Source of the DNA: an uncultured Planctomycetota bacterium
GTDB lineage: Bacteria > Planctomycetota > B143-G9
Length of the DNA: 64,000 nucleotides
Direction of reading: 5' to 3'
Assembly (NCBI GenBank): GCA_964571525.1
Contig: CAZNBY010000001.1
Coordinates: 90,329 to 154,328, forward strand
In this document: in pieces, positions 34,166 through 62,709 of the stretch
How the letters are laid out: each line of letters opens with the position of its first letter
How positions within the stretch are numbered: the first letter of the stretch is position 1
Translations under genes and position numbers: made by a program
Notes under the pieces: model-generated
The model's database searches: none
What the model was told of the DNA's origin: nothing
Seen by the model: only the letters and a program-made list of their open reading frames with translations

Positions 34166-36295
34166 TTAATCGTAGTTAACAACCATCTTCACAAAGTCGT
34201 TGGCCATTGTGCCAAGCCCGGCAATAGACCTGCGCTTTCCTTCGATTAAGAAGCTCTTTTTGCGCGTTGCGTCAAGGTTCTTATAAGTCGAGTTAAAGGA
34301 GTTCACATTCTGAATTCCTTTCGAATCAACTGATACAATCACAAATCCGGGTGTGATATAGGCCCTTTCGGCGGCAGAATTCTCCATCACCGCGATGACC
34401 TTGACACCAAGCCCTTCAGGCAGACCATACTGTAATGACTCTGTCTTTGAAAGCGGAGATACAACCAATCCCCAACGCTCTGCGACGACAATTTCGTCAA
34501 CGCTCTTCGGTTGGGGCGCGGTCTTAATCTTCACTTTGCGCTTCCCCTCGCCGGTGTTTTCCTTCACATATAAGGTCAGCTCCGTATTGATAGGTAAAGA
34601 GGCAAAGATGTGATAGATGATGCCGAGGTCTGGTGAATTACGGCAGTTTATTGGCTTCTGAACGGTATTTTCTCCATCTGTGTATTCAATCTGATAAATC
34701 AACTGACCAGGCTTGATGTCTGTGCTGGAAGCAGGTGAGTCTGCGTCTATTCCTGCAATTGCAACGCCTTTTTCTGTGGCTGGAAGCTCAAGGCTCTTAA
34801 GTGAATCAAAGATGATTCCAGTGTATGAGCGGTTGACTTTGCCGTATTTGCGGATCGAATTAGCTATCTCGCGAACATAGTTCGAATGAATCGCAAAGAA
34901 CAAGCCTTCATAGTCTGTTAATCCAAACGCTCTGTGCAATCCCGCAACACAAACGCCAACAACCTTGCCGTCAAGATCAACCAGCGGCCCACCGGTGCTG
35001 CCCCAGTTTATGGGTGCATCGGTCTGGAAAAACTGGTGATAGAAACCGCTGGATTCACCTGTGCGAACCTGATACACCGTGTAACGATCAGGGCATGAAA
35101 GAATGCCAAGCGCAACCGAATTTGCCCTGCCGTTCGGTGACCCAACGCTTAACACCGTTTGTGCGACATTCTCTTTCGCTGCGTCTGAATCAGCCCACTC
35201 TACATCGTAAAGCACCTGATTATGAGCCTTCAACAGAGCCTGATCGAGCAAGAGCACCGCAATATTCGATGGTACATCAGGCTTGCCGATTACCTTTGCG
35301 GGGTACACGCTTTTATCGTGTAACATGACGCGGATCGAACGAGCGCCTGCGATGTTCTCATAGCATGTTACGACATAACCTTCAATGCCGAGTGAACCTT
35401 CCGGCTTGAAGATGAATCCAGATCCATAATACTCGATGCGTTTTGGGCGGCCACGCTCGAATACATCAATGTCGGCAATAACCGTCACAGTGCCCTTAAC
35501 AGCGCGCTCCGACGCGGTAGAGTACTTCTTCTGAACGCCTCGATATATTGTCTCTTGATCAACCTTGCCAAGCATTCCAGCAGCGATCAGTTTATCCTTC
35601 AATATTTTCGACACTTCCTCTGCTGTCTTCTGATAGGTACGAACATTGGATTCTACTGCATCGCTTTTAACTGTGCCGCCCATCATGTTCAACACAAAAT
35701 AGCCGCCTACGATAAGCGCGATAAAGACGATAAAGTTGAGAATCAATGCGACCCCAAAGAACGAAGGAGCCTTTGCCAGTGCCTCACGCTTGCGCTGTGC
35801 ATAGTCAACTTTGCCAACAAGCACGCCTTCGGGAATGTCTTCAACGACATCTTCAGGTTCTTCCTCGACAACAGGCTCTTCGATAGGAGCTGGAGTTCTT
35901 CTGCGCGACTGCTCAGGTGCTTCTTCTCTTCGCGCTCTTGCTGGAGGAGGTTCCTCCGGTTCCGGTTCTGGTCTGCCACGCCTCGACCTGATTGGGGGCC
36001 CTTCCTCAACCATGGGTTCGGGGGTATAGTCATCCTCAACCGGCGCAGGAATCGGCACTGCTGGTTCCGGTATGCGCGAACGGGCAGGGCGTTCTTCAGC
36101 AATTGGGCGCGGCGTTTCTGCGCGCGGAGTTTCACGCCGTTGGGGAATCGGGGTAGGTATCGGAGGTGGTGCGACAACAGGTTCATCTGCAACAGTCAGT
36201 ATCCCACCGCATTTCTTACAGCGAATCTTCGATCCGACTGGAAATTTCTCGACATTAAACTTTGCGCCACAAGAGCATTCTTGAATTCTTGCCAT
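34166..36295 (-). CDS. HtrA/DegP-like pseudo-protease with N-terminal MJ0042-type zinc ribbon, Pro/Glu-rich linker, TM helix and PDZ domain
   Basis: Zn ribbon MARIQECSCGAKFNVEKFPVGSKIRCKKCGGILTV; TM; trypsin-fold core aligns to gene 38038-39759 but His->Glu (VVTCYENI), Asp->Asn (SNIAVLLL), Ser->Thr (WGSTGGPLV). Confidence 0.7.
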   Translation of the reverse strand: MARIQECSCGAKFNVEKFPVGSKIRCKKCGGILTVADEPVVAPPPIPTPIPQRRETPRAETPRPIAEERPARSRIPEPAVPIPAPVEDDYTPEPMVEEGPPIRSRRGRPEPEPEEPPPARARREEAPEQSRRRTPAPIEEPVVEEEPEDVVEDIPEGVLVGKVDYAQRKREALAKAPSFFGVALILNFIVFIALIVGGYFVLNMMGGTVKSDAVESNVRTYQKTAEEVSKILKDKLIAAGMLGKVDQETIYRGVQKKYSTASERAVKGTVTVIADIDVFERGRPKRIEYYGSGFIFKPEGSLGIEGYVVTCYENIAGARSIRVMLHDKSVYPAKVIGKPDVPSNIAVLLLDQALLKAHNQVLYDVEWADSDAAKENVAQTVLSVGSPNGRANSVALGILSCPDRYTVYQVRTGESSGFYHQFFQTDAPINWGSTGGPLVDLDGKVVGVCVAGLHRAFGLTDYEGLFFAIHSNYVREIANSIRKYGKVNRSYTGIIFDSLKSLELPATEKGVAIAGIDADSPASSTDIKPGQLIYQIEYTDGENTVQKPINCRNSPDLGIIYHIFASLPINTELTLYVKENTGEGKRKVKIKTAPQPKSVDEIVVAERWGLVVSPLSKTESLQYGLPEGLGVKVIAVMENSAAERAYITPGFVIVSVDSKGIQNVNSFNSTYKNLDATRKKSFLIEGKRRSIAGLGTMANDFVKMVVNYD

Positions 36296-36316
36296 GTGTA
36301 ATCCCCTTAATTCGGG

Positions 36317-38026
36317 CTATTCGTCACCTTCGTCTTCTTCGTCTTCTTCGTCGTCTTCTCCACCGCCATCATCTCCCTCTGAGCTAATTCTGAGAGAATT
36401 GCTAACAAGAAAACAGCGCGTAAAGCCAGAACGAAGCACTTTGAAGAAAACCCATTTGAGTGACTTATCGCCAGCCAATTTTTGATATAGCTGCTCGATA
36501 CCCGCCTTAGTGGTTGGGGTTTCGTTTTCAATCGCCAAGATAACATCACCTATCCTTATTCCTGCATCGTAGGCACTTCCTGTTCTGTCAACAAACGATA
36601 CAAAAAAGCCCTTGCCTTGCTTAAAACCGCGGCGTGCCGCCTCGCGAGGCGTTAGGGGCTTTAAGGAAATCTCCCACATGGTACAAAGGAATTCGAAATC
36701 TCCCTCCTCTGACCATTCTTGAGGTGTTACTTTTACAGTAACCGATGAACCGTTGCGGTCGAGTTTTAGCTCGACATTAGAACCAGTCTTAAGTTCAGAA
36801 AGACGGCGACGCACAACGGCAAGGTCATCGTTGTCACGGGCTTCCACCGGAGAAGGGCCGACTGTGAGCAACACATCCCCCGGCTTCACTCCTGCCTTGT
36901 CTGCGGGCGAATCTGGAGCAACATAGGATACAAGAACCTTGCCGCTCTTGCCCTCAACATCAAATGTCTGAAGATCGAATCCAAGGTAAGCACGCGATAC
37001 ATGTCCCTGTGCAACAATATCGTCCGCAACCTTCATTGCGTAACCGATTGGAAGGCTGAAGTTAAGGTTTTTCACATACTCATAATTGAACGAGAAATTG
37101 CGGTATAGGTCTTCAGTGCTGAGCCAGTGCATGTTTACAGCTACAACTTCGCCCTTTGAGTTTGCGGTCGGGCCACCTTCAATTCCTCTGCTTATCGGAG
37201 AGCTGACTTGATAGAAAACTGAGTTTGTACCGGCAATCTGTCCATTACGAAGTGTGAATTCAAGAGATCTGTTAAGGTTTGATACTGCGCCGCGGAAAAA
37301 AGCTGATTTCCAGCGATGTGATGCTCCGGCGGTGATCACAGGTTCACCAAGCCCCACTTCAGTGCAGATTTCGACAACTGATATAGCACTGGGGTTGTCA
37401 ATCAGCGACATATCAATTTTCAAAACGCCTATGTTTGAGTCAGCATCGCCACCAATGACCTTTGCGCGGGTGATTTGCTCGTCCGGCAGAGTTACAATTG
37501 CGTAATCTGCACCGTCAACCGCATTGTAAGTCGTCAGAATATAGCCTTCGTTTTCGCGCTTGCCGGTCGGCATGAAGAAGAAACCCGAATATGGGCGGGA
37601 ATATGTATTGGCGACGCGCTTTGAATCTACGATCTCGTAGTAAACAGGCTCTACATAAGCCAGCGACTTTGCCACTTTCTTGCATGCATTTGGCACTTCA
37701 TTGAGGATGATCTCGTCAATGACCTTTTTTACATTCACATCCGTTTTCTTCGATTCGTCAATGCGCTTATCAATCTGAGATTTAAGCGTCGTCCAATCGT
37801 TCTGGTGCCGCTTTATATCGAAATTGTGCTCTGCCAAGCCGAATCTGACGGATTCGGAAATTGCGATTAACGCAATTATGGCAATAACCGCCAACACGAC
37901 ATTCAGCCAGAAAACTGGGGCAAGCCCGAGAAACTGCGCCGGTTTGACGACAGCCGGGCGAAACGGAATCGGCCTTATCCGCTTCTTTGCGCTTGCCGTA
38001 TCCTGCTTTGGTCTTCTTGCAGACAT
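36317..38026 (-). CDS. HtrA/DegP-like pseudo-protease, TM-anchored, two PDZ-like regions, poly-acidic C-terminal tail
   Basis: Trypsin-fold core with His->Asn (ILTTYNAV), Asp->Asn (SNIGVLKI), Ser->Glu (SRGIEGGPT); C-terminal EGDDGGGEDDEEDEEDEGDE. Confidence 0.7.
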   Translation of the reverse strand: MSARRPKQDTASAKKRIRPIPFRPAVVKPAQFLGLAPVFWLNVVLAVIAIIALIAISESVRFGLAEHNFDIKRHQNDWTTLKSQIDKRIDESKKTDVNVKKVIDEIILNEVPNACKKVAKSLAYVEPVYYEIVDSKRVANTYSRPYSGFFFMPTGKRENEGYILTTYNAVDGADYAIVTLPDEQITRAKVIGGDADSNIGVLKIDMSLIDNPSAISVVEICTEVGLGEPVITAGASHRWKSAFFRGAVSNLNRSLEFTLRNGQIAGTNSVFYQVSSPISRGIEGGPTANSKGEVVAVNMHWLSTEDLYRNFSFNYEYVKNLNFSLPIGYAMKVADDIVAQGHVSRAYLGFDLQTFDVEGKSGKVLVSYVAPDSPADKAGVKPGDVLLTVGPSPVEARDNDDLAVVRRRLSELKTGSNVELKLDRNGSSVTVKVTPQEWSEEGDFEFLCTMWEISLKPLTPREAARRGFKQGKGFFVSFVDRTGSAYDAGIRIGDVILAIENETPTTKAGIEQLYQKLAGDKSLKWVFFKVLRSGFTRCFLVSNSLRISSEGDDGGGEDDEEDEEDEGDE

Positions 38027-38037
38027 TGCTTCACCCT

Positions 38038-39759
38038 CTATTGTATATCAACGAAAATGAATATCTTCGCATTGCCGCGAAGAACCTCGAACACCGTTGG
38101 TGGAACCGCACCGCGTCCGATGTATCGGTTTATGTGTTGGATAATTATGTTGCGCATGTGATCGTGGGTTTCAGGTTTAACTCCGCACACTCGGAGAATT
38201 AGATCTCCCCTTTGAAATCCATACGGCTTGAGGTTGATCACATAGCGCGCATAGTTTTCAAGGCGCGAAGTGCCATCATTCCAGGCGCGTATGGCGATGC
38301 CGCCGTCGTCTTCATCAGGAAAGCCAGCCATCTCAAGGTCAGCCTCTGAGACCTTCTCGAAATACGCACCCCAAAGAATTTCTGCAAATTGCTTAAATGG
38401 TTGTTCTCTTCCGGGGAAGCCAATGCTGCGCATGGTCGCAGTCTTCTCTTCTCCAGTAATGTAGTTGCGCCAAGTAAGCTCGAACTCGGTCAGCACTTCA
38501 TTCATTTCGAACAGATAGTTTATGCGAGCAAGGTCGGCAAGGGTCTTTATGGTTGTATATTCCTCTGCCCCTGTCTTTATGTTGCGCACCTTTGTTACGA
38601 CATCGCCAGGGCGAAGCCCCGCTTCGTATGCCGGGCTTGATGATTCAACAGCGATAACCGGCGCACCGTTTCGGTTCTCCATACCGAAGAACGAAAGCGG
38701 AGCAAACGATACGCCTATTTTTGAACGATTGATAAAAGTGGTCGAGCCTGACTCATGTGCACGAACGATACGGTTCACAATGTCGCGCTCGTAGTTTGAC
38801 GCGATCGCGTAACCCACTCTCTGGAATTCGAACCATCCCAGAGTGTTCATACCAATAACCTTGCCTTCGATGCTCACCAGGGGGCCGCCGGAATTTCCGT
38901 GGTTGATTGGCGAGTCCATTTGGAAAAACACATGCTGCTGGTGTGCATAATGATTGCCAAGCATCATGGGAATAAAGCGATTTAGCCCGACTATTATTCC
39001 GAAAGATACCGACCTGCCAAGACCTTGCGGAGCACCCATTGCCATGCAGAATTCACCTACACGGATCTTGTCGCTATCGCCGAACTCGGCAGGACGAATG
39101 TTTGCTGCCTTTGATGTGTCGCGAAGTTTGATAACAGCAATGTCGCAAAAATCGTCTGCGAAAATTATGTCGGAAGGCACGATTTCCTGATTTGAGAGAA
39201 TTGACTCGACAATAGTTGCGCCTTGTACCACATGGAAATTTGTGACGATGTAGCCCTCGCGACGGTCGGTGTGGTGGTCGGGTCTAAATATAACTCCTGA
39301 ACCTGTACCATTGTTGCAGCTTACCATTACAACAGCGGGATAGACAATCTTGCGGGCGTCGGTTATCTTTTCGAACACCTTGTTCATAAAGTTCGTTGCG
39401 CGCTGCTCAGACTCGTCAACGATCTCTATCTTGCCTGCGTCAGCCTCCCAACGCTTTAGCTCGGGAGCAATGTCCTGAACTTCTTTTTCAAGCTTGTCTT
39501 TCGCCGTCTCGGCCTTTGCTTTGACCTTAAACGCGCCAATCGCGACACCAAGCAGCGATAACGCGATGATTAGAATGACAGAAATCATCGCGCCGGTCTT
39601 TGGGACCGATTCCTCCTGCTCTGCTGCGATCGCATCGGGGTCAACCGAGTATTCGACCGACAATACAGCTCCGCACTCAACGCACTTGTAGAGCTTTGCG
39701 GGATCCAGTTTGTCTGAATCGTAAACCGAACCGCATTTGCAAAATAATGACCTTGCCAT
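38038..39759 (-). CDS. HtrA/DegP-family serine protease with N-terminal MJ0042-type zinc ribbon and TM anchor (catalytic triad intact)
   Basis: Start ATG 39759 (GGAGGT RBS); Zn ribbon MARSLFCKCGSVYDSDKLDPAKLYKCVECGAVLSV; His (IVTNFHVV), Asp (DIAVIKL), Ser (NHGNSGGPLV) all present; PDZ domain. Confidence 0.8.
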   Translation of the reverse strand: MARSLFCKCGSVYDSDKLDPAKLYKCVECGAVLSVEYSVDPDAIAAEQEESVPKTGAMISVILIIALSLLGVAIGAFKVKAKAETAKDKLEKEVQDIAPELKRWEADAGKIEIVDESEQRATNFMNKVFEKITDARKIVYPAVVMVSCNNGTGSGVIFRPDHHTDRREGYIVTNFHVVQGATIVESILSNQEIVPSDIIFADDFCDIAVIKLRDTSKAANIRPAEFGDSDKIRVGEFCMAMGAPQGLGRSVSFGIIVGLNRFIPMMLGNHYAHQQHVFFQMDSPINHGNSGGPLVSIEGKVIGMNTLGWFEFQRVGYAIASNYERDIVNRIVRAHESGSTTFINRSKIGVSFAPLSFFGMENRNGAPVIAVESSSPAYEAGLRPGDVVTKVRNIKTGAEEYTTIKTLADLARINYLFEMNEVLTEFELTWRNYITGEEKTATMRSIGFPGREQPFKQFAEILWGAYFEKVSEADLEMAGFPDEDDGGIAIRAWNDGTSRLENYARYVINLKPYGFQRGDLILRVCGVKPETHDHMRNIIIQHINRYIGRGAVPPTVFEVLRGNAKIFIFVDIQ

Positions 39760-40024
39760 CGTACCTCCGAGGCAGGCGATAAAACAATGATTCTGCGTGA
39801 CTAATACCGAATTATAGGCTCTTTTGACAGCCGACAAACAATTATGTAGTGTTGAACTCAATAAGAGGCTATTCTATCTGTTCGTCGTGCAATCTTAGGT
39901 CACCTACAATTCAGTAAGACGAACAAACCGCTTAGTATGTTTCACCAACTTGCTCGCTAACAATTATCCTCGATCCAATGCGTACCCATTCGGCAATCCG
40001 CGCCCGATGCAAGCTCATTTTTAG

Positions 40025-40052
40025 TTGACACGACCGTAGCTACATATACACT
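40025..40052 (+). promoter_or_regulatory. Possible sigma-70-type promoter for cyclophilin gene
   Basis: TTGACA at 40025-40030, TACACT at 40047-40052 (spacer 16); AGGAG RBS before ATG 40095. Confidence 0.35.
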
Positions 40053-40094
40053 TGCCCATTCGCAACATCCGTCTTTGACAGGAGTTCAGTCAAT

Positions 40095-41123
40095 ATGAGG
40101 TATTCGTTATTTGCACTTGCCTTGTTGTTTGTTTTTGTGGCTTCTTTCGTTGTAGCCGAAAACGACGAACCGACACCTACAACTTCACCAACCGCTGCTG
40201 CGGAACAGACCCCCGCGCCCACGCCAAAGCCGGAACTTGAGCTTGGCCACGATGCGGATGGCCTTTCTCTGCACCTTAACGGACCTTTTCATTTCAAGGT
40301 GGTTGATGGCGATATTATTGACCCAGTCAATATCGAGTTCAAGCTCGACCTTGTCGGCGACACAAAGGATGTCAAGCTCAACACAAACCCTTATGCCTCG
40401 TTTAAAATCGAGGCGATTGATGATGACAAACGCGAACCATTAAAAACGCTCAGCGAACAGCCTAAGGATGGAGTCGAGTTCACTCTTAAACTCACCGAAG
40501 GTTCATATTTCGGCGGTAAATTTAAGAGCCTTGAAAAGTACTTCGACTTCAGCGCTGGTGGCCGCTTCCATGTGCGCGCAAGCTACACGGTTGGTGAAAA
40601 GACCGCCGTCAGCGATTGGGCGGCAGTTGACATTTACACCCGCACCGTCGTTCGCATCAATACGCGTGAGGGCGAATTTGTTGTTCTTATGCGCGAAGAC
40701 AAGGCGCCACAGACCTGCGCAAACTTTGTCACGCTTGCAAAGCGCGGCTTCTATGATCACCTTATCTTCCACCGCGTCGAAAGCAAGCCCAACTTTAAGC
40801 TCATACAGGGCGGATGCCCACACGGCGATGGTTCTGGCGACGCTGGTTACAAAATTGACTTTGAAACTAATGATCTGAAGCATGAGGCCGGAGCAGTTGC
40901 TATGGGTCTTTCTCCCGGCGATAAAAACTCCGCAGGCAGCCAGTTTTACATCTGCGTCGAGCCCACTCCAAGCCTTGACGGTCAGTACTGCGTATTCGGC
41001 TTGGTAATCGAAGGCATGGAGACCATCAAGCGCATCGGCGCTGTGCAGGTCGGCAAGGTTGAGCCCACTCGTCCAAATATCCCAGTTGAAATGTCAAAGG
41101 TTGCCGTCGAATACTGGAAGTAA
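40095..41123 (+). CDS. Secreted peptidyl-prolyl cis-trans isomerase, cyclophilin type, with N-terminal domain of unknown function
   Basis: Signal peptide; cyclophilin motifs FHRVESKPNFKLIQGG, SAGSQFYIC. Confidence 0.85.
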   Translation: MRYSLFALALLFVFVASFVVAENDEPTPTTSPTAAAEQTPAPTPKPELELGHDADGLSLHLNGPFHFKVVDGDIIDPVNIEFKLDLVGDTKDVKLNTNPYASFKIEAIDDDKREPLKTLSEQPKDGVEFTLKLTEGSYFGGKFKSLEKYFDFSAGGRFHVRASYTVGEKTAVSDWAAVDIYTRTVVRINTREGEFVVLMREDKAPQTCANFVTLAKRGFYDHLIFHRVESKPNFKLIQGGCPHGDGSGDAGYKIDFETNDLKHEAGAVAMGLSPGDKNSAGSQFYICVEPTPSLDGQYCVFGLVIEGMETIKRIGAVQVGKVEPTRPNIPVEMSKVAVEYWK

Positions 41124-41144
41124 TTCCACTCAATTCATCACATG

Positions 41145-41177
41145 AAAAGGCGGGCAAAATCCCGCCTTTTTTGTTTT
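41145..41177 (+). terminator. Rho-independent terminator after cyclophilin gene
   Basis: AAAGGCGGG-CAAAAT-CCCGCCTTT hairpin followed by TTTTTTGTTTT. Confidence 0.8.
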
Positions 41178-41234
41178 ACCTCTGCGCAACTGCTCAGTCA
41201 TTGTATTCGCAACGGTGGTAAAGCCTGATAGAAT

Positions 41235-43388
41235 GTGCAAATGGAATTTGGAGCCTCGCACCTTGCCGCGATTCTGTTCTTCGCCCTTATACCTGTTCTG
41301 ATATATCTGCTCTTCAAGCGCAGATACAGAAGGCAGGAACTGGGTACAATGACCATTCTTCTTCGCGCCTATCGCAAGATTGGCAAACTGCTTCGAATAA
41401 AAGAGATGATCTTACTTGTGCTTCGTACTGCGGCAATGCTCGCATTTCTTGCCGCGCTCCTGCAACCGCTTTTGTCTAAGGGGGCGGGTGACCGCAAAAC
41501 CCACCTTGTTTTCGCTTTCGATTCATCTCTTTCAATGCGCATGAAAGTCGGCGAGACAAATCGCTTTAAGCAAGCCGTCGAGCACGCGAAGAGCACAATT
41601 GAGAGTTCGGGTCGCAATACAACCGTCTCGGTTTTTGTTTTCGACGACAAATGCCGTCCACAAGGCAGCAGCTTCATGCCAGTTACCGACGCGCTTCGGC
41701 TGCTTGACTCCCTATCCCCCGGATTCGGCGGAACAAATCCTTTTTCAATTGCTCGCCCGTTGCTTGATGAGGCAAAGCGGGCAGGCGAAATCAATGCGCG
41801 GTGCGAAGTTTTTGTGCTTTCGGATTTCGCGGTAAATTCGTGGACATCTGGTGACGGCCTTCGAGAGGCCAGCGCGAAGGAGCGTTTCACTGAGCTTTCT
41901 GATATATCTACACTTACATTTGTGGATTGTGCGCTTGGACATAAAAGCAACCGCGCAATTAATTCCATACGCCCGACACGCGGCACATTTTGTGTCGGCC
42001 TCGACACAATGCTTCACGCCGCTGTTTCATACTCATCACCTACAGGCGGCGAGACTGCTGTTGTATCGCTTGAGCGCGATAATGAGGCTTTTGGGCAAAG
42101 ATCTGCAGATGTAGCCGCTGGTGAACAGGTTACATGCGCTTTTCCTGATCGCCCACTTGACGAAGGCCCCCATTACTATCGGGTCTTTGTTGAGCCAGAC
42201 GAGCTTGCGGAGGATGATCAGCGTTTTCTTGCGGCAGATGTGCGAAGGAAGATTGATGTGCTGATTGTGGACGGTCGCCCTGATGCAGAGAAGTATCGTT
42301 CTGCTTCTGGATTTGCTGAAACCGCGCTTGCGCCTTCAGAGCTTCGCGATCTTTCACCACTTGCGCCGCGGGTAATCTCTTTGGCTGATCTTGAATCCGA
42401 TAACATCTCTCTCCCTTCAGTCGTTATACTTTGTGACCCGCCAGCACTTTCCAAACGAGCAGGGGAGTTGCTCGCAAAATTCGTCGCTTCAGGCGGTGGA
42501 CTTCTTGTAGCACTTGGGCAATCTGCGCGGCTCGATTTGATTAACGAATCGCTTGGAGGCAAAACGGGTTTTCTGCCAGCAACCCTCGTTTCAGCTCATT
42601 CAGGTGGCGACAACGACTGGCTCGGTATTGACAGACTGAACCTCCCTGAACCCTTAGAGGGTATGGGAGCGCTGTGGAAATCTGGTATGAAGCGGTTGAA
42701 GATATTCTCTTTTGTAGAGGCAACACCGCATGAGGATTCCATGGTGCTGCTGGCTCTTTCTGGCGGCAAGCCATTGCTAATATCCCGCAGTTTGGGAAAG
42801 GGCAAGTGCATGTTGTGGACTTCATCCTTCGACGGCGAGTGGACAAACCTGCCTGCATTGCCAATGTTCCCGCCCCTTTTGCACGAGCTTGTCTTCTTTC
42901 TGACCGAAAACGAGCGCGAGCGCTTAAACTTGACCGTTGGTGAGAGCATCAACCTCGCATTGCCTCTATCGGATATTGGCGGGGCTGCGACCTTATACCC
43001 ACCTGAAGGCGATGAACTTGAACTTCGTCCAACGCTCGACGGTGAACCGAGGATCGAATACGGCCCCCTTACCACCCCCGGCATCTACCGTTTACAGCTT
43101 GCATCAGGAAGACTGGTGCTGCTTGCAGCAAACCCCCCGCACGAGGAAAGCGACACAGAGCCACTTACAGAGCGGGCTTTGCGTAAGCTGCTCGATGGGG
43201 TCTCTTTCAAGCTCGCCTCTATAAAATCCGCCGATTCTGTCGCTGATGAAAGACCAAAAGACCTTGTCCGTCTGCTGATTCTTATTGCGCTCGGCCTGCT
43301 AATTCTTGAAACAGTGCTTGCTTCTATCTTCAGCGCACCGCCAAAGACCGTCAATCTCGACTTTTCATCTGGGGCATTCGGCAAATGA
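41235..43388 (+). CDS. BatA-like protein: N-terminal double-TM domain + von Willebrand factor A domain + C-terminal TM
   Basis: N-terminal hydrophobic pair with RRYRRQ; vWA MIDAS motif LVFAFDSSLSMR. Confidence 0.6.
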   Translation: MQMEFGASHLAAILFFALIPVLIYLLFKRRYRRQELGTMTILLRAYRKIGKLLRIKEMILLVLRTAAMLAFLAALLQPLLSKGAGDRKTHLVFAFDSSLSMRMKVGETNRFKQAVEHAKSTIESSGRNTTVSVFVFDDKCRPQGSSFMPVTDALRLLDSLSPGFGGTNPFSIARPLLDEAKRAGEINARCEVFVLSDFAVNSWTSGDGLREASAKERFTELSDISTLTFVDCALGHKSNRAINSIRPTRGTFCVGLDTMLHAAVSYSSPTGGETAVVSLERDNEAFGQRSADVAAGEQVTCAFPDRPLDEGPHYYRVFVEPDELAEDDQRFLAADVRRKIDVLIVDGRPDAEKYRSASGFAETALAPSELRDLSPLAPRVISLADLESDNISLPSVVILCDPPALSKRAGELLAKFVASGGGLLVALGQSARLDLINESLGGKTGFLPATLVSAHSGGDNDWLGIDRLNLPEPLEGMGALWKSGMKRLKIFSFVEATPHEDSMVLLALSGGKPLLISRSLGKGKCMLWTSSFDGEWTNLPALPMFPPLLHELVFFLTENERERLNLTVGESINLALPLSDIGGAATLYPPEGDELELRPTLDGEPRIEYGPLTTPGIYRLQLASGRLVLLAANPPHEESDTEPLTERALRKLLDGVSFKLASIKSADSVADERPKDLVRLLILIALGLLILETVLASIFSAPPKTVNLDFSSGAFGK

Positions 43389-44209
43389 GAAAGCGGCTGC
43401 AACTTATATCAGCAGCGGCGATACTTGCGATTATATGTTTTGTCATCGCAACTCGGCCTGACCGCCCATCCATCGTTGCCGTTGCCTATGACCCATCAGA
43501 TACAGTATCAACCGACCGCTCTCGCCGCTTCCTCAAGCAGCTCGATACGCTTTCGCGAGAAGCACAAGCCGCGCAGTTCGTGCTTGAGATACTTATAGGC
43601 GAGCAGATGACATTGCGCACAGCAAGTGGCGATTTTCCTGTGGATGACAAGGGTAAAAAGCTGCTTGACAGGGTAGAGGTCTTCTATCCCTCCACCCCGC
43701 AGGTCGCTGAAAGAATGCTTAAGGAATCGGCCTGCCTGAAAGCAGTTTGGGTTGTAAGCACAGATGACTATGAAAAGCCAAAATGGGCTGAGGTTCTTTC
43801 AGGCGACAAGGTCAAAAGCAGAATTGATGGCGAACCTCTATCGTTTGAACAGATAGAAGCTGAGATCAAAAAAGTAAAGCAAAGTATCTCTAAGTTCGCT
43901 TTAGTTCGAGTTGGAAAACCCATCAACCTTCCAGATAACTGGACCTTTGCAGAGACAGAGTCCGCAGTCTTGGATAAAGACTTCGCCGTTGTTTTCGAGT
44001 CACCTCACGCCCCGCCACAAGAACGCGTGTTCGCATTCTATGCGCTTATCGGAGAGCAGAAGCCCGATGGTTTCGATCTGCTGATTCACAAGGATACTGC
44101 TACGATCGCGGCCTATATGGCGCGCCAGAACCTCGACAAAAAGAAGACGCTCACCTATGATAAACCCCCGTTTAAGATTCGCACTATATCAAATGCTGTT
44201 GCAGACTGA
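43385..44209 (+). CDS. Membrane-anchored hypothetical protein (coupled to BatA-like gene)
   Basis: ATGA start/stop overlap; N-terminal TM helix; no recognised motif. Confidence 0.4.
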   Translation: MRKRLQLISAAAILAIICFVIATRPDRPSIVAVAYDPSDTVSTDRSRRFLKQLDTLSREAQAAQFVLEILIGEQMTLRTASGDFPVDDKGKKLLDRVEVFYPSTPQVAERMLKESACLKAVWVVSTDDYEKPKWAEVLSGDKVKSRIDGEPLSFEQIEAEIKKVKQSISKFALVRVGKPINLPDNWTFAETESAVLDKDFAVVFESPHAPPQERVFAFYALIGEQKPDGFDLLIHKDTATIAAYMARQNLDKKKTLTYDKPPFKIRTISNAVAD

Positions 44210-44281
44210 CGATTTATAATGTATTGCGAAACAAGATGCGTGTGAGTTAGTCGAAAGCCGCGTAGCACAATCGGAGAGAAA

Positions 44282-45220
44282 ATGAAGAAAGCACTAATCA
44301 CAGGCGGCGCAGGTTTTCTTGGCTCTCATCTATGTGACCTGTTGACCTCACGCGGGATCGAAGTCGTGGTGCTCGACAACTTCAGCACCGGCCTCATGCA
44401 GAATCTCTCCACCAGCAACTCCACCGGCTTTCTTTCCGTGATAAATGGTGACTGTAGAGACCCGCTGATTGTCGAAAAGGCTATACAAAATTGCGACACC
44501 GTGTTTCACCTTGCCGCGCAGGTAGGTGTTGACCGTGTTATAGCTTCACCCCTTGACACTATTGAAATCAACACTGCATCCACAAAAATCGTTGCTGAAG
44601 CATGCCTGAGGAAAAACTGCCTGCTTATATTCTCCTCAACCTCAGAGGTGTACGGAAGAAACGAGCGGGTACCGTTTCGCGAGGATGACGATCTTGCCGT
44701 GGGTTCTCCCTTAATCAACCGCTGGTCTTACGCGGTAAGCAAGATTCTTGACGAACACTATATATGCGCAATGGTGCGCGAAAAAGGTCTTAGGGCCGTG
44801 GTGTTGAGGCTTTTCAATGCTGTGGGGCCACGGCAACGGCCAGATTTCGGCATGGTTTTACCCAAGTTCATCACCGCTGCGCGCGAAGACAGGGATTTGA
44901 TCGTGTACGGCGACGGTTCGCAAAAACGCTGCTTCACCTGGTGCGGTGATACCGTTGAGGCTCTTTGTGCAGTTGTGCGATATCCGTCAGCAATTGGCAA
45001 TGTGTACAATGTGGGTTCATCTGAAGAGATCTCTATCGCCGAGTTAGCCGAGAAGATTATCTCGCGCTTCAAGGGTGGTCACATAAGATTCGTGCCAGAG
45101 GAAAAGCGAGGCCCGGGATTCGCGGATATGCAACGGCGTGTACCGGATACTTCACGAATTCAATCTCTTTGTGGATGGCACTTAACACTGAATATGAATC
45201 AGATCCTCGATAGGATGTAG
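44282..45220 (+). CDS. NAD-dependent epimerase/dehydratase family protein (SDR, UDP-sugar-modifying type)
   Basis: Rossmann motif ITGGAGFLGSH, catalytic Y-x3-K (YAVSK). Confidence 0.8.
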   Translation: MKKALITGGAGFLGSHLCDLLTSRGIEVVVLDNFSTGLMQNLSTSNSTGFLSVINGDCRDPLIVEKAIQNCDTVFHLAAQVGVDRVIASPLDTIEINTASTKIVAEACLRKNCLLIFSSTSEVYGRNERVPFREDDDLAVGSPLINRWSYAVSKILDEHYICAMVREKGLRAVVLRLFNAVGPRQRPDFGMVLPKFITAAREDRDLIVYGDGSQKRCFTWCGDTVEALCAVVRYPSAIGNVYNVGSSEEISIAELAEKIISRFKGGHIRFVPEEKRGPGFADMQRRVPDTSRIQSLCGWHLTLNMNQILDRM

Positions 45221-45229
45221 ATAATACCG

Positions 45230-46342
45230 CTATTCCTCTGACTTTTCTGCATCGTTCTTCTTGGTGCGATTCTGTGGCTTATCACCTGTTTTAGTCTTAA
45301 TCGGCTTTTTGTTACGAAGTTCTTCAAGCATCTTTGCTGATTGGCGAAGATCCTCTACATAATGGGCTTCGGCGGCGTTTTCAGCCGCAATTCTGCGCTT
45401 TTCAGCATAGTTCTCATATTGACCCTCCGCCCAATCAAAGGCATCCTCATGGCTGATTGTGCCCGTTCCATCAAGCACCGGCAGTTCTGTATCAATCAGA
45501 AACTTATCAAGATATACTTCCCAATCGTGCATTCTTATGTTCTGCCGCCTCATCGCACGAAATTCGGCTTGATCAAGAAACATGACTGTTATGCGGTTAA
45601 GTGTATCTATCTCCTTTTCATCAAGGTAATTCTTCGCGGTCACTATATCGCGCTTCAGCACTTTTTCGCCCTTCCATGAGGTCAAGCCCATATTCGGCTT
45701 ACTTGAATCAGCGCGCTGTCTGACTATCTCCGCAGCGGTCATTCCTGTTGCAGCATAATGCATCTTGTTCTGCATCGTGGCAAAAAACATCTGGGTCTCG
45801 CGTTCACCCTCCATATAGTCGCATGCAAGTGCAAAAATCTCACGAATGCGCTGATATACGCGCGCTTCGCTCGCCCGAATGTCCCTTATGCGCGCAAGCA
45901 GTTCGTCGAAATAGTCAACTATACCAACTCTGCCCTTCAACCTCTCATCGTCAATAACAAATCCCTTGACAATATATTCACGCAACCGCGCAGTCGCCCA
46001 CTGGCGGAACTTTGTCGCGACCGGCGATTTCACTCGATATCCTACCGCAAGGATCATTTCAAGACTGTAATGCTGTATCTTGCGTGTTATCTTCCGTTTA
46101 CCCTCTAATCGAACTATTAAGTAATCCTTAACAGTTGCCTCTACCTTCAACTCACCCTCAGTATAGATGTTCCTCAGATGGATGTTGATGTTTGGAATCG
46201 TTGTTTGGTACAATTCTGCAATCTGGTTCTGCGTCAGCCATACAGTGTCGCCATCGAGCATCACTTGTATGTGACTTCTTCCGTCTTCAGTCTGATAGAC
46301 GACTATCTCGCCACCAGGACGCGGAGCATCCATTTGATTCAT
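45230..46342 (-). CDS. RhuM-family protein (virulence/genomic-island-associated family)
   Basis: Characteristic N-terminal block VVYQTEDGRSHIQVMLDGDTVWLTQNQIAELYQTT...HYSLEMILAVGYRVKSPVATKFRQWATARL. Confidence 0.7.
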   Translation of the reverse strand: MNQMDAPRPGGEIVVYQTEDGRSHIQVMLDGDTVWLTQNQIAELYQTTIPNINIHLRNIYTEGELKVEATVKDYLIVRLEGKRKITRKIQHYSLEMILAVGYRVKSPVATKFRQWATARLREYIVKGFVIDDERLKGRVGIVDYFDELLARIRDIRASEARVYQRIREIFALACDYMEGERETQMFFATMQNKMHYAATGMTAAEIVRQRADSSKPNMGLTSWKGEKVLKRDIVTAKNYLDEKEIDTLNRITVMFLDQAEFRAMRRQNIRMHDWEVYLDKFLIDTELPVLDGTGTISHEDAFDWAEGQYENYAEKRRIAAENAAEAHYVEDLRQSAKMLEELRNKKPIKTKTGDKPQNRTKKNDAEKSEE

Positions 46343-46623
46343 GATTCACCTCAATGAGTCTATATTACGCCATCATTCAACAACGGCAAGCGACTTAGAT
46401 GTCTACCGCTGCTTTTGGTTCGACACTTCGCGGCTCATGTCTGGGCATAAACACGGCTATTCGCGACGGTTTCTTATCTTGTGATATCTATTGGGTTACA
46501 TCAATAACGCGCAGGTATGTATAGAGGGCGAATCACTTCGATTGGATGTCATTCTGTCAGGGAAAATTCGAGGAATAAAGGCAAAAATTAGTTCGAAATT
46601 GAAGTTGTTGTGACCCGTTGCGT

Positions 46624-48072
46624 CTATTTCTTCGGCTTGTCCGCCTTGCCATCTTCGTCGCTAATCATATCGAATATTGTAAAGTTGCCCATATCCGGTT
46701 CGTCTTTCCGTTCTGGTTTTGTCTGGGCAACAGGATTGCGGAGTTTGCGGTTTGTTCCGTTTGTCTTAGGGTCGGCATCTGGCATCTTGTCGGCTCCCCC
46801 TCTGAAAAACCCTGTCGTGCCTGCCGCTGCACTGCTCTCATCACCATTGCGGTGTACATAGTCGAAGTCAACAAATTCCTCAAGCTTCTCACGCTTTTTC
46901 AAAGGTTCGCCGGTTGCTGCGGTGGGCATGAACTCAAACACATCCGGTTCTATGTCCTCCACAAAAGTGTCCTCCTCCTTTGCGTGCTGCTGGGGTTTTG
47001 GTTGAGGGTTACTTTCGGGCGCTTGTCTTTCCTCAACTATTGTGGAGGCGGCAACAGCTTGTTTGCGCTCAGGGCCAAGCACAAGAAGGTATGAATAACT
47101 GCCTCCTGCACAGAATAAGGCGATCGCAAGCGTAACGGGAAACGCAAACGACAGCATAAGCGCCGCAATGAACAAATAACCTGCCGATGGTATGCGTTTT
47201 ATTCCGTATCTATCTATCGGCGATGTGTTTGTGTTGGCGTTCAGCCTCGTGGCAAGGTTGTTCGCAAACGAAGAGGGGAGAATGCTGTCATCAGATATCA
47301 CAGCCACACAATCGGCAAGAAGGTTGTCTTTGCCGATAACCTCCAACTCGAGCCTTGTTCCCATCACAAGCGACGACGAATCCAAGGCGCGCTTCACGGC
47401 AATCTTCCATACCGGAAAAAAGATAAACCAGAACACCAAAATCGTTAGAACTAACCATAGAGCAGCTTGGCTGAATGCCTTAAAAGCCCTTTCGCTTATC
47501 ATCGTGTAAAACTGCATTGCCAGTTTGCGTGGCGATCCACCCATGCGCTCGGTGTGTGGCACCCAAAGAAAGAAGTAGAAAAGCACAGCTAAAACTACCA
47601 GAATGTTGAACACAAAGGTGAAAAACAGCACGATGTACAACGCAGGAAATACCCAGATAGGCAGTTTTGAGAGCGTAAATAGATAGACTATTCCGGTTTG
47701 AAGCATGTAGATTACAAAGAACCCGCCGATGAAGATAAACGGGGCAGCAAGGTATGTGAAAGGCGCTGATAAGACAGCAGAAAAGAAGGTCTTTTCGCTG
47801 TTAGGCGTTATAAGCGCGTTGTTAACATCAAAGGCAATCGAGGTAACTCCCCATGTCAATAACAGGAAAAGAAACGACTGACCGAAAAGGCCGATGGGGA
47901 ATTCACCAGTGGGAGAGCCCGACTTGAGCGAGCGAAGCAGAAGCAAAACGGCAATTTCGAGTATTATCACCGAGACAGCAAACGCAGTAAAAAGGGCGGA
48001 GGGCTTAAACAGCACCTTCGACGCCTCGAGCGTCTTGAAGAAGTCTATCTCTGTCCGCGGTCGTAATGTCAA
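46624..48072 (-). CDS. Polytopic membrane protein with charged disordered C-terminal tail (hypothetical)
   Basis: Multiple hydrophobic segments; C-terminal Glu/Lys/Pro-rich region; no recognised family. Confidence 0.45.
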   Translation of the reverse strand: MTLRPRTEIDFFKTLEASKVLFKPSALFTAFAVSVIILEIAVLLLLRSLKSGSPTGEFPIGLFGQSFLFLLLTWGVTSIAFDVNNALITPNSEKTFFSAVLSAPFTYLAAPFIFIGGFFVIYMLQTGIVYLFTLSKLPIWVFPALYIVLFFTFVFNILVVLAVLFYFFLWVPHTERMGGSPRKLAMQFYTMISERAFKAFSQAALWLVLTILVFWFIFFPVWKIAVKRALDSSSLVMGTRLELEVIGKDNLLADCVAVISDDSILPSSFANNLATRLNANTNTSPIDRYGIKRIPSAGYLFIAALMLSFAFPVTLAIALFCAGGSYSYLLVLGPERKQAVAASTIVEERQAPESNPQPKPQQHAKEEDTFVEDIEPDVFEFMPTAATGEPLKKREKLEEFVDFDYVHRNGDESSAAAGTTGFFRGGADKMPDADPKTNGTNRKLRNPVAQTKPERKDEPDMGNFTIFDMISDEDGKADKPKK

Positions 48073-48085
48073 AATGCCTGTCTTT

Positions 48086-48844
48086 CTAACTCAAGTCCTT
48101 CTTTTGTGCGAGTTTGTTGTAGATAATCAAATCGTCAACACCGTTATACAGGCCCGAGGAGAGCACCAGCAAAACCTCGTCACCAAACGAGTGAAGGCGC
48201 AGATTTCCCTTTGCCATGCTTAGTTCTAATGTGCCGTTACCACCGATACTGAACGAGTCGCCGAAATACTTCGCAACTTTGTGAAGATAATAGAACGAAT
48301 TAGAGATCATCTCTGCATCGAATTCCGTTGGGCATTGGGCTGCAAGAAGCATTGCATCGCGGGAGAAGATGAATGCGGCGATAATCTTTCTTTGGCGGAA
48401 CACATCCTCAAGCGCTGGCACATACTCCGAGTCAGCAAATCTTCGCGACGATGGAGCAGGGGCGGGGGCCACTTTCTGTGCGCGTATTTTAGAGCCGTGT
48501 TCTACCACTTCCTCAACCGTCTCTGATGTTGTCGTCTCCTCGTTCGTCTCGCGCACTTCCTCAAGCATTTCGGTGCGCTTGTCGGGCTGAGACCCTCTAA
48601 CAGGGCGCGGCATGCCGGTGTTATCAACATCCATTATCGAGCCGCACTTAGAGCAACGGAATCGAATACCGGGCTTCATGCTTCGCGCATCGAACATCGC
48701 TCCACATGCAACACATGCGATAGAGCGACCGCCCGGCACCGTCAGATACATAGAACAACCGCGGCACTTAATTCTTGTGCCCGGCTTCAGCTTTTCAACG
48801 CTGTAATCCCTGTTGCATTCTGTACAGGTTATGATCTTTGCCAT
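48086..48844 (-). CDS. Tandem MJ0042-type zinc-ribbon protein with C-terminal roadblock/LC7 (MglB-like) domain (tentative)
   Basis: Two ribbons (MAKIITCTECNRDYSVEKLKPGTRIKCRGCSMYLTV; IACVACGAMFDARSMKPGIRFRCSKCGSIMDV); C-terminal alpha/beta segment assigned to roadblock fold from pattern only. Confidence 0.4.
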   Translation of the reverse strand: MAKIITCTECNRDYSVEKLKPGTRIKCRGCSMYLTVPGGRSIACVACGAMFDARSMKPGIRFRCSKCGSIMDVDNTGMPRPVRGSQPDKRTEMLEEVRETNEETTTSETVEEVVEHGSKIRAQKVAPAPAPSSRRFADSEYVPALEDVFRQRKIIAAFIFSRDAMLLAAQCPTEFDAEMISNSFYYLHKVAKYFGDSFSIGGNGTLELSMAKGNLRLHSFGDEVLLVLSSGLYNGVDDLIIYNKLAQKKDLS

Positions 48845-55589: not shown

Positions 55590-56996
55590 TCAGAACTTGA
55601 TGTTGGCAAGGAAGTTATCAACCTCGGGTATGCCGCCCTGGAAGACAAGGTAACCATTTGAAGGCTCGCCCTCGGTGATATCGTGGCAGATGGGGTTCAA
55701 CATGATCTTCTTAACTTCCTCGCGGTCCTCTGTCTGGCCAAGTGCCCAGCCGAGCTTCATATAGGCCGTCTCGGGCAGCATGTTCGCGCACTGCACAACG
55801 CCCAGCTCAAGAAGGTCGCGCCCCGTATCGTACACAAACATCTGCACAAAGCCCCACAGCGTCTGCACGGTCATATAAATATGCATGCCAGAGTCAACGG
55901 CGCGCTTAAGCGCGGGATTGAGCTTACGGTTCACATGCCCAAGACCCGTGCCAGCTATGATAAGTCCCTTGTAACCGTTGTCGCGCAACGAGTCAACAAG
56001 GTCGGGGTCCATGTTCGGGTAATAATATAGTATCGAGACGCGGTCGTTAAAGGTCGGCATGAGCTTCATCTTGCGGCTCTTGTCGCGCCTCTTGTAGTCG
56101 TTCTGTATTGGCTTTATCCAGTTAGGCGACACCATGCCCAGCGGCGTATCACCAATCGTGCGGAATGTAGAACGGTATGACGAGTGCATCTTGCGCACCC
56201 TTGTGCCCCTGTGCAAAAGGTCGTACTGGTCGCTTGTCGGGCCGAACATGCAAACCATCACCTCGGCAAAATCGCTCAATGCGGCGGTGCGAACAGCGTT
56301 GACCAGATTTATCGCCGCGTCGGAAGAGGGTCTGTCGCTCGACCTCTGCGAGCCCACCAACACCACCGGTACGGGCAGGTCTTGGCACATATATGTCAGA
56401 ATCGAGGCCGAATAGTGCATTGTGTCAGTCCCGTGGCCGATCACAATACCATCAACATCGTTCTGTTCTATTTCGTTGTAGATCTCTTGCGCGATGACCT
56501 TCCACTGCACCGAAGACATATCTTCAGAGAATATGCCGAAGATTTTACGCGTTCTCAAATTGCATATATCGGCAAGCTCTGGCACAGCGCTGTAAAGCTC
56601 ACCGGGTGAGAATGCCGGTATAACGGCACCGGTGCGATAGTCAAGGCGCGATGCGATAGTTCCGCCTGTGCCGAGCATGACAACATTGGGGCGGTTTGGC
56701 GAGTATGGGAACTCTTTTTCTGGTATCTTGTACTTGCCCTCTTTGAAGCCAGTTTCGCGAATATCAATTATGCTATTGACGGCGACACCGGTGTTGTAGC
56801 CCGTCGGCAGCTTCAACACAAGGTAACCATCTGGCGATTGCTCGGCGCGGGGCAAAATGATACCGACAAAGGTGCCTTGCATAGCGCGCACAACAACATC
56901 GCTCCAGACCTTAACGCCGAAGCGCTTCATGCACTCTATCGAGTCGCCTTTGTAACCTTTGTACAGCTCTTTTTCAGCTTGAGTTATCGTTGTCAC
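55590..56996 (-). CDS. L-asparaginase-fold protein with GatD-like N-terminal domain (Glu-tRNA(Gln) amidotransferase subunit D-like)
   Basis: Asparaginase motifs TGGTIAS and HGTDTM; about 100-aa N-terminal extension (GYLVLKLPTGYNTGV) resembling archaeal GatD; start set at GTG 56996 with GGAGA RBS. Confidence 0.6.
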   Translation of the reverse strand: MTTITQAEKELYKGYKGDSIECMKRFGVKVWSDVVVRAMQGTFVGIILPRAEQSPDGYLVLKLPTGYNTGVAVNSIIDIRETGFKEGKYKIPEKEFPYSPNRPNVVMLGTGGTIASRLDYRTGAVIPAFSPGELYSAVPELADICNLRTRKIFGIFSEDMSSVQWKVIAQEIYNEIEQNDVDGIVIGHGTDTMHYSASILTYMCQDLPVPVVLVGSQRSSDRPSSDAAINLVNAVRTAALSDFAEVMVCMFGPTSDQYDLLHRGTRVRKMHSSYRSTFRTIGDTPLGMVSPNWIKPIQNDYKRRDKSRKMKLMPTFNDRVSILYYYPNMDPDLVDSLRDNGYKGLIIAGTGLGHVNRKLNPALKRAVDSGMHIYMTVQTLWGFVQMFVYDTGRDLLELGVVQCANMLPETAYMKLGWALGQTEDREEVKKIMLNPICHDITEGEPSNGYLVFQGGIPEVDNFLANIKF

Positions 56997-57191
56997 GACA
57001 TCTCCACTGTTGGGTGATGAACGGGGGCAAACCGCCATTCTACCGGCCGTTAGGGCGCGCGCAACTAAAAGCGGGGGCGGGGAAAGGGGGGAAGTGCAGC
57101 TTCCTTTGTTGACAATATAAAATCAACGCTAAAATACATTCATCAGCATGATTTCGCGTCGAAGGCTTTCTCGCACTACAGTTACGCTATA

Positions 57192-59212: not shown

Positions 59213-59378
59213 GCAACATGTTCTACGGCACAATGAGGCGGGAGGACTACAACCGGATCATCGAAGGCCAGTCTTAGTACTCTGTCAGAGTCTTTTGTCT
59301 ATGAGGCTCTGCGAGGCATTTACTCGCATCAGCATCAATGCGAGGTCCAATCGCCTGAATATGCGAAATGTACTGCCA

Positions 59379-62319: not shown

Positions 62320-62709
62320 GCTTGAACTCCAGAAAAGGCTATGGATTTTGATAAGTCACACTCGAAGTATCCCTTGAATACCCATATGAGTCAGAGACAG
62401 TACCGGCACAATTGACCGTAAACTGATCCCACCAATTTTACACCACGATTTCACGGTTATCAACAGGTTCTAATAAGCAAATCCATCTCACAACTTACTC
62501 AAACTGGCGCAGTTTCACGGCTTGGTTACATGTTAGCGTAAGAATAGATAAAGCCGCACCCCCCAGAATGCTCATATAGATTGATATGTTACCACGCCCT
62601 TACTTGCTGCGGTTTACAAGAAACCTGTTTGCAGCAGGCATAAGTTTATATGCCTTTCTTAGAATACACCTCCCTCGCAGGTTTCCGCCAATCGTGGCTT
62701 CAATCCTCC

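Follow-up and report, generated by a model that had tools for sequence, protein, structure and literature searches.

What does it mean when one small zinc ribbon (ZnR) stands at the N-termini both of membrane-anchored HtrA-type proteins and of a Roadblock protein? The question is raised by a 64,000-nucleotide stretch of DNA from an uncultured Planctomycetota bacterium (GenBank assembly GCA_964571525.1, contig CAZNBY010000001.1, positions 90,329 to 154,328), hereafter the window. Four ribbons of about 36 residues, each with four cysteines (Cys4), occur in it: one at the N-terminus of p709 (34166-36295), one at that of p573 (38038-39759) and a tandem pair in p252 (48086-48844), all encoded on the minus strand. 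An initial annotation of the sequence took the shared module to suggest a common binding partner or localisation signal linking the HtrA locus with the Roadblock locus. As a whole, we consider the findings best explained by a cytoplasmic docking ribbon of a known family, carried by an HtrA set and by a Roadblock protein with no common partner implied, and we put the probability of this reading at roughly 0.7.

Four ribbon copies and their family

The ribbon begins at residue 1 in p709, p573 and p252. The p709 copy spans 36191-36295 (minus strand, residues 1-35) and the p573 copy 39655-39759 (minus strand, residues 1-35); a profile hidden Markov model (HMM) of the module matches them with domain E 1e-16 and 3.5e-12, respectively. 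Both have cysteines at positions 7, 9, 26 and 29, and thus a CxC first knuckle. In p252 the first knuckle is CxxC; copy 1 spans 48737-48844 (minus strand, residues 1-36, CxxC-x16-CxxC; domain E 2e-18) and copy 2 spans 48620-48733 (minus strand, residues 38-75; domain E 3e-14). All four copies have 16 residues between the two knuckles, giving CxC-x16-CxxC in p709. The N-termini quoted in the initial annotation are exact in position on the minus strand, and the second p252 copy that it mentioned is real. Its literal motif, on the other hand, fits none of the three sequences, which have P-x4-I rather than P-x3-I, with p252 also having CxxC and lacking the CG; a loosened form fits all three.

The N-terminal position in p573 depends on the choice of start codon. 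The ATG at 39759 is preceded, at a distance of 4 nt, by a GGAGG ribosome-binding site (39764-39768, minus strand), and the N-termini of orthologues read MARSLFC or MPRSLFC; p573 therefore starts at this ATG, with the ribbon at its extreme N-terminus. A longer, TTG-initiated open reading frame (ORF) was set aside on the same two grounds.

The copies are homologous to one another. When all 1252 six-frame ORFs of the window were searched with an HMM made from the four copies, only p709, p573 and p252 were retrieved (E 4e-42 to 1e-19; next match 0.55), with no further copies in the rest of the 64 kb, and an HMM of 100 module sequences gave the same three-protein outcome over 275 kb comprising the window and related loci. 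When each copy served as sole query, the other two proteins were the best non-self matches (E 6e-11 to 0.17), with unrelated ORFs beginning at E ~0.4. Beyond the four cysteines, the copies are identical at 6-11 of 33-34 positions. The ribbons are also kept in orthologues spanning ~30-55% identity: that of p709 in P0016/L007 and in a 705-residue protein of L015, that of p573 in P0020, P0025 and a 575-residue protein of L007, and the cysteines of copy 2 of p252 are invariant across eight orthologues. In the AlphaFold2 (AF2) model of p252, every ribbon folds as four short strands with a predicted local distance difference test score (pLDDT) of ~70-84 (copy 1 ~75-84; copy 2 strands 41-73). A short domain in which four positions are cysteine could in principle arise as a chance resemblance of Cys-rich N-termini, but reciprocal single-sequence matches well over background, the uniqueness of the module HMM matches, retention in orthologues and ordered models leave that explanation a practically negligible probability. 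A 97-residue ORF with CxxC motifs at 17567-17857 (plus strand), just upstream of a DUF4159 gene, matched the module HMM marginally (E 0.024 for the full sequence, no domain passing) and is probably not a true ribbon copy.

To place the module we took a census of its homologues by a profile search of 1.84e9 representative proteins at E <= 1e-3, which returned 422 carriers. Among 150 that were inspected, the module mostly starts at residue 1-10, as a single copy or in tandem arrays of up to eight, and a transmembrane (TM) segment often comes next; ten carriers that were looked up are nearly all metagenomic fragments. Pfam Zn_ribbon_4 matches 61 of 136 carriers (E <= 1e-3; best 1e-16) and Zn_ribbon_5 matches 32 of the 136. 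When 100 homologous modules were excised and compared with NCBIfam, TIGR02098 (MJ0042_CXXC) was the top family, matching 50 (E <= 0.01; best 6e-9), and the GltJ model matched nine. The four cysteines are invariant in all window copies and in the 100 homologues, a CxC first knuckle occurs in 20 of 100 family members, and the 16-residue spacer in 96 of 99 retrieved homologues. On these comparisons, it is essentially right at the family level to assign the ribbon to the MJ0042-type, or Pfam Zn_ribbon_4-5, family, to which the N-terminal ribbons of ZitP and GltJ/AgmX also belong, with the window copies classed by sequence as a short-spacer sub-variant. Since the family is known and widespread, mere reuse of the ribbon is ordinary; the novelty lies in its contexts.

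Ribbons ahead of the membrane anchor in an HtrA set

Genes p573, p569 and p709 are adjacent and encode paralogs of the HtrA/DegP family (S1C) with Trypsin_2 and PDZ domains (Pfam, NCBIfam), each with one N-terminal hydrophobic anchor. In p709 the ribbon is followed by a cytoplasmic linker (35762-36190, minus strand, residues 36-178) whose 143 residues include 33 prolines, 26 glutamates and 19 arginines, by a single hydrophobic membrane anchor identified in a Kyte-Doolittle scan (35669-35761, minus strand, residues ~179-209), and by a periplasmic HtrA-like pseudoprotease with PDZ domain(s) (34166-35668, minus strand; Trypsin_2 9e-20, PDZ_2, TIGR02037 1e-55). The layout of p573 is the same, with a linker of only 21 residues, acidic in character, as against 143 in p709, leading to the membrane anchor (39520-39591, minus strand, residues ~57-80) and a periplasmic HtrA protease with PDZ (38038-39519, minus strand; Trypsin_2 3e-26, TIGR02037 7e-55). 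Between them, p569 (36317-38026, minus strand) has a TM anchor, a pseudoprotease domain, two PDZ domains and an acidic tail, and no ribbon. Trypsin_2 exceeds its cut-off in all three proteins. PDZ_2 and PDZ_6 do so in p569 and p573, and PDZ_2 falls slightly short in p709 (26.5 vs 27 bits). The TIGR02037 matches, that of p569 being 6e-45, all lie under the subfamily cut-off of 416.

The His/Asp/Ser triad is intact only in p573 (TNFHVV, CDIAV and GNSGGP). In the triad alignment, the catalytic positions are occupied by E/N/T in p709 and N/N/E in p569, and the replacements are equally present in the orthologues of both, the E/N/T of p709 recurring in P0016. Because only p573 keeps the triad, the set comprises one protease and two pseudoproteases, in agreement with the labels of protease and pseudo-protease in the initial annotation. 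The conservation of the replacements suggests, from sequence comparison, a hetero-oligomer of protease and pseudoproteases. A comparable arrangement is found in the MamE/MamO proteins of magnetotactic bacteria, which are likewise neighbouring HtrA paralogs, active and catalytically dead, with N-terminal TM anchors. Unlike these, the window set has neither a magnetochrome nor a TauE domain, and its similarity to the NCBIfam MamE and MamO models is weak (115 vs 800 bits), far under the equivalog cut-offs. We know of no cytoplasmic zinc ribbon reported on MamE/MamO-type proteins.

HtrA proteases act in the periplasm, where they are normally also regulated. As the HtrA domains function there and the ribbons of p709 and p573 lie upstream of the single anchor, we infer that these ribbons face the cytoplasm, which upholds the earlier description of a cytoplasmic module. 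Two relatives with this topology have been characterised. In Caulobacter crescentus, the ribbon of ZitP binds PopZ, and ZnR(1-43) by itself is enough for targeting to the pole, in dependence on PopZ (Berge et al. 2016, PMC5182065); ZitP consists of a ribbon assigned to Pfam zinc_ribbon_5 (PF13719), a linker, a TM segment and a periplasmic DUF3426 domain (PMC5182065). In Myxococcus xanthus, the ribbon of GltJ binds its own linker and, once freed by MglA-GTP, attaches to MglB, a Roadblock protein, at the C-terminal helix, raising the efficiency of MglB as GTPase-activating protein fourfold (Attia et al. 2024, PMC11135422). A binding or localisation role, which the initial annotation had supposed, thus has precedent in the family in ZitP-PopZ (PMC5182065) and GltJ-MglB (PMC11135422).

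The layout of p709 and p573, an N-terminal Cys4 ribbon of ~37-43 residues in ZitP and ~36 here, then linker, single TM and periplasmic domain, is that of ZitP, and GltJ, also a membrane protein, resembles them in having a Cys4 ribbon at its cytoplasmic N-terminus with a flexible linker behind it. By analogy, the ribbon is most likely a cytoplasmic protein-docking handle; docking as its function, and the identity of any partner, are argued from these relatives. Given the match to the ZitP layout, the HtrA ribbons would give some factor in the cytoplasm a means of positioning or regulating an HtrA assembly in the periplasm, probably made up of active p573 and the pseudoproteases p709 and p569. 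Such a conserved docking domain on a protease/pseudoprotease set would imply that envelope proteolysis is positioned or controlled from the cytoplasm, in parallel to ZitP linking PopZ to pilus assembly. The correspondence is not complete. The periplasmic domain of ZitP is DUF3426 rather than HtrA/PDZ, its partner PopZ is alphaproteobacterial with none seen in the window, and no residue of the window ribbons clearly corresponds to its W35, on which PopZ binding critically depends.

Comparison with PDB sequences bears on the docking function. A profile of the four window copies matched 7ZOK, the AgmX/GltJ ribbon, end to end (E 3e-3). With the 100-sequence family profile, the matches formed by a single stretch over most of the profile were 7D6L, the Trx2 N-terminal zinc finger (E 5e-7), 7ZOK (E 2e-6, with a 3-residue gap in the alignment), 2NB9, a 49-residue 'uncharacterized protein' (E 2e-5), and LysW, 3WWL (E 3e-5). 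2NB9 is probably the ZitP ribbon. Matches to C2H2 zinc fingers and to Sir2 were sums of knuckle fragments or embedded ribbons, from which no homology was taken.

Since Trx2-type fingers figure among the top single-stretch matches (7D6L, and also 1V98, 7YSI and 3P2A), the ribbon might instead act, in the manner of the Trx2 N-terminal zinc finger, as a switch sensitive to redox state or zinc, reporting thiol or metal stress in the cytoplasm to the proteins that carry it. Pfam, however, detects no redox domain, of thioredoxin type or other, in p709, p573 or p252, the membrane-anchored layout fits ZitP and GltJ, and the similarity to Trx2 probably reflects a common ribbon scaffold; we regard a redox switch as very unlikely. 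Binding of nucleic acid, with the ribbon as a membrane tether for DNA or RNA, is highly improbable. The ZitP ribbon fold has been noted to resemble the DNA-binding protein Cren7, and the profile also matches ribosomal and RNA-polymerase ribbons, but only weakly or in part. The strand that contacts DNA is missing from ZitP, whose ligand is PopZ, and it is not evident what use nucleic-acid binding would be to a protease of the periplasm or to a Roadblock protein.

Several points weigh against a docking ribbon of the MJ0042 type. The family label of the initial annotation held for the homologues, which match TIGR02098 and Zn_ribbon_4/5, whereas the window copies themselves lie under the curated cut-offs: window proteins score 13.2 and 18.2 bits against Zn_ribbon_4 (PF13717; cut-off 30.3) and 11.2 and 17.1 bits against Zn_ribbon_5 (PF13719; cut-off 29.3), and TIGR02098 is absent at E <= 1 from an NCBIfam scan of the four full-length proteins. 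Their spacer is 16 residues rather than the 19 of ZitP and GltJ (C5/C8/C28/C31) and of TIGR02098 (CXXC-X19-CXXC), and the first knuckle of the HtrA copies is CxC. The top single PDB match is the thioredoxin-2 zinc finger and no docking domain, and profile matches of a 36-residue Cys4 domain are driven partly by the cysteines themselves. Zinc binding by the ribbons is presumed from their homology, as the cytoplasmic location of the HtrA ribbons is from the position of the TM segment. Lastly, the middle paralog p569 does without a ribbon in the window's lineage, and neither PopZ nor MglA has a homologue in the window.

The Roadblock protein and its Ras-like neighbour

In p252, the two ribbons are followed by a disordered linker and, at the C-terminus, by a Roadblock/LC7 domain (48098-48424, minus strand, residues ~141-249) that ends in a helix at residues 238-249. 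There is no TM segment, so that the ZitP-type succession of ribbon, linker and anchor seen in p709 and p573 does not extend to this protein. The match to Pfam Robl_LC7 falls below the gathering threshold (11.8 vs 23 bits, E 0.21), and a profile of the p252 family matches PDB entry 7YH1, a Roadblock protein, at E 1.5e-3, and also CvnB5 (3LEQ). The AF2 model gives residues 145-249 an alpha-beta-beta-alpha-beta-beta-beta fold with pLDDT 80-93. A Foldseek search with the whole model, dominated by this domain, returned Roadblock/LC7, Ragulator or MglB structures for all of the top 49 PDB matches (TMt up to 0.72), bearing out the roadblock-like label that p252 had been given. The linker has pLDDT <50 at residues 85-121 and is variable in sequence outside one motif, AQ..APPPA.SRRF (48434-48487, minus strand, residues 120-137), in which Q123, P129 and R135 are invariant in eight orthologues. 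By analogy to the linker of GltJ, this motif may be an intramolecular ribbon-binding site or a site for a partner. Homologues of p252 form only two clusters among 5.8 billion clusters, with eight representatives at 50% identity. By the source names of cluster members, the lineage falls among metagenome-assembled genomes of Planctomycetota / Ca. Brocadiia; a single-protein query against species-representative genomes found no relative.

Directly upstream of the Roadblock gene, and conserved there in every relative examined, lies the gene for p741 (P0162; 49006-51210, minus strand), for which Pfam, synteny, AF2 and Foldseek indicate a receiver (REC) domain, a PATAN (DUF4388) domain and a C-terminal Ras-like domain. 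The last is a conserved, unannotated domain of ~170-200 residues within 49009-49665 (minus strand), the Ras-like part being placed at 49009 to ~49520. Its AF2 model, built on a three-sequence alignment, has pLDDT 81.5 and a predicted template modelling score (pTM) of 0.83. All 50 of the 50 listed Foldseek matches are GTPases, nearly all of the Ras family (TMt 0.43-0.63), among them K-Ras, H-Ras, Rap1B, M. xanthus MglA and two EngB structures; a sequence profile of the domain found no match in the PDB. Neither Walker A (GxxxxGK[ST]) nor NKxD occurs in the domain in five orthologues, and the position after beta-1 reads LGNVHDLSD. DxxG is likewise missing from the Ras-like domain of the five, the only instance (L010, residue 506) lying upstream of it. 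A Ras-like fold without nucleotide-binding motifs marks the p741 C-terminus, as modelled, as a probable pseudo-GTPase fused to REC-PATAN. Searches with full-length p741 were flooded by generic receiver domains, and the C-terminal domain alone added one homologue.

Roadblock/GTPase modules associated with PATAN have reportedly been described by Makarova et al. in 2006. Downstream of the Roadblock gene, p482 (46624-48072, minus strand) is a multi-pass membrane protein with no Pfam match; a protein of this type (~481 residues) occupies the same place in most relatives and is absent in L017. No small GTPase, MglA, PopZ-like or GYF protein was found in the 64-kb window, nor an MglB gene apart from p252 itself. 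A possible co-occurrence of PATAN with the ribbon in the wider family was rejected: DUF4388/PATAN matched six of the 136 carriers, yet the two matches examined were partial, covering ~30 residues, and no stretch of them passed; an HMM of the window's own PATAN family matched none of the module carriers.

Neighbourhoods combining PATAN and MglB are already known (Wuichet and Sogaard-Andersen 2014, PMC4316618), and as in MglB/MglA/PATAN modules, a Roadblock-fold gene here stands beside a Ras-like domain and a PATAN protein. Unlike in MglB/MglA, the GTPase-like domain is the C-terminus of a REC-PATAN protein and lacks Walker A, NKxD and DxxG, and unlike MglB, the Roadblock protein bears two N-terminal ribbons. 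The comparison with GltJ runs in both directions. Its ribbon is tied to Roadblock MglB and Ras-like MglA, the folds of p252 and of the p741 C-terminus, but it acts on MglB in trans, whereas the two ribbons of p252 stand in cis, on one polypeptide with the Roadblock domain. The GYF domain that follows the ribbon in GltJ has no counterpart here, and the neighbouring GTPase-like domain lacks nucleotide-binding motifs and is joined to REC-PATAN. If the analogy holds, p252 and p741 would be an MglB/MglA-like pair in which the ribbon that GltJ provides in trans is built into the Roadblock protein, and the ribbons, linker motif, Roadblock domain and helix 238-249 of p252 may form a GltJ-like ribbon/linker switch that acts with the pseudo-GTPase.

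The succession of two ribbons and a Roadblock domain, beside a Ras-like pseudo-GTPase, would then be a natural fusion of what in Myxococcus are partners in trans, the GltJ ribbon and MglB. As such, it supports the generality of the ribbon-Roadblock relationship reported in 2024. The pair also offers a compact study system in a phylum of which the cell biology, with its budding, polarity and unusual division, is little understood, and the claims made here are directly testable with small soluble domains. In the literature searched, we found no description of ZnR-TM-HtrA, ZnR-ZnR-Roadblock or REC-PATAN-pseudoGTPase proteins; these two architectures and the neighbour are rare, lineage-restricted variants.

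Shared ribbon, separate loci

How the ribbon came to stand on both kinds of protein can be read from relatives, where synteny extends over the HtrA triplet and its flanks. In L015, a distant relative, a CxC-type ribbon stands at the start of all three HtrA paralogs, the counterpart of p569 (L015:9722-11509, 595 residues) opening with MANFVQCKCGEK...; the ribbon of the middle paralog is missing, as a loss, from the window's lineage and from L007. Because all three L015 paralogs bear the ribbon, the sequences point to a single fusion to an ancestral HtrA before triplication, with later loss from the middle paralog. Fusion to the Roadblock protein was a separate event, followed by tandem duplication of the ribbon. 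The initial annotation had counted three functionally different proteins. Although its labels of protease, pseudo-protease and Roadblock protein stand, there are only two architectures, and both HtrA copies stem from one fusion.

The two loci lie 6.9 kb apart in the window and ~53 kb apart, on the same contig, in relatives. A RhuM-family gene (45230-46342, minus strand; Pfam E 6e-106) sits at the junction between them, at the position where relatives have an ackA-pta-POR-ABC block downstream of the Roadblock operon. The short distance in the window is thus due to the missing ackA-pta-POR block, and the RhuM-family gene marks the rearrangement that brought the loci from ~53 kb to 6.9 kb. The link between the loci that the initial annotation drew from their shared module consequently loses the support of proximity.

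One partner or target site in the cytoplasm, common to all three ribbons and functionally linking the HtrA and Roadblock loci, nevertheless deserves consideration. The ribbon family is confined to these three proteins within the 64 kb and the related loci, ZitP-PopZ provides a targeting precedent, and both loci co-occur in every relative examined (in the distant one, within the same metagenome sample), although co-occurrence is weak evidence, being expected anyway in one narrow lineage. The sequences speak differently. In the family alignment, the closest matches of each window copy are its own orthologues and then modules of unrelated proteins; the residues common to the window copies are the family consensus, and in mutual similarity the copies reach only ranks 6 to 79 of 99, no closer to one another than to modules from unrelated proteins of other organisms. 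Nor does family membership predict the partner, since the ribbons of ZitP and GltJ have different ligands and that of AgmX localises unlike ZitP's in Caulobacter. With the loci ~53 kb apart in relatives as well, a common partner of the p709, p573 and p252 ribbons is not supported by the sequences, and we judge it unlikely.

In a narrower and attractive form of such a link, the Roadblock dimer of p252 would be the docking site of the HtrA ribbons, so that the REC-PATAN-pseudoGTPase/Roadblock module controls where or when the periplasmic HtrA complex acts. The model is the GltJ ribbon, which binds a Roadblock protein through the C-terminal helix of MglB. The Roadblock fold of p252 ends in a helix (238-249), p741 provides a GTPase-like neighbour, and the fusion of ribbon and Roadblock in cis offers support of the Rosetta-stone type for a relationship between the two. 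Set against this, linkage of the loci is not conserved, the two ribbons of p252 could themselves fill such a site on its Roadblock domain, and ligands of these ribbons are expected to vary outside the Myxococcales (PMC11135422). Direct docking on p252 is quite unlikely in our estimate, and a Planctomycetota polarity-type switch (REC-PATAN-pseudoGTPase with ZnR-Roadblock) that recruits or gates the HtrA assembly through zinc-ribbon/Roadblock contacts is equally a long shot. Were it true, cytoplasmic signalling would decide where or when envelope proteolysis occurs. The reading that we prefer, a docking ribbon of a known family borne separately by the HtrA set and the Roadblock protein, implies neither contact.

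The window holds further features apart from the ribbon proteins. At 7949-12697 (plus strand) lies a 1582-residue ORF with no Pfam match at E <= 1e-3. A Cys-rich protein of 166 residues (4856-5356, minus strand) matches DUF5763 and a WRKY19-type zinc-finger motif and is distinct from the ribbon; its gene stands immediately downstream of, and co-oriented with, that of a REC-sigma54 activator (5353-7584), with a 4-nt overlap. The gene at 55590-57038 (minus strand) combines GatD_N and asparaginase domains in an archaeal-type GatD architecture and is conserved in relatives L010-L014. At 57254-60119, a GmrSD-type restriction endonuclease with N and C domains adjoins a DUF5131 protein, and two large ORFs without a Pfam match follow at 60337-63915; together, these genes may constitute a defence island.

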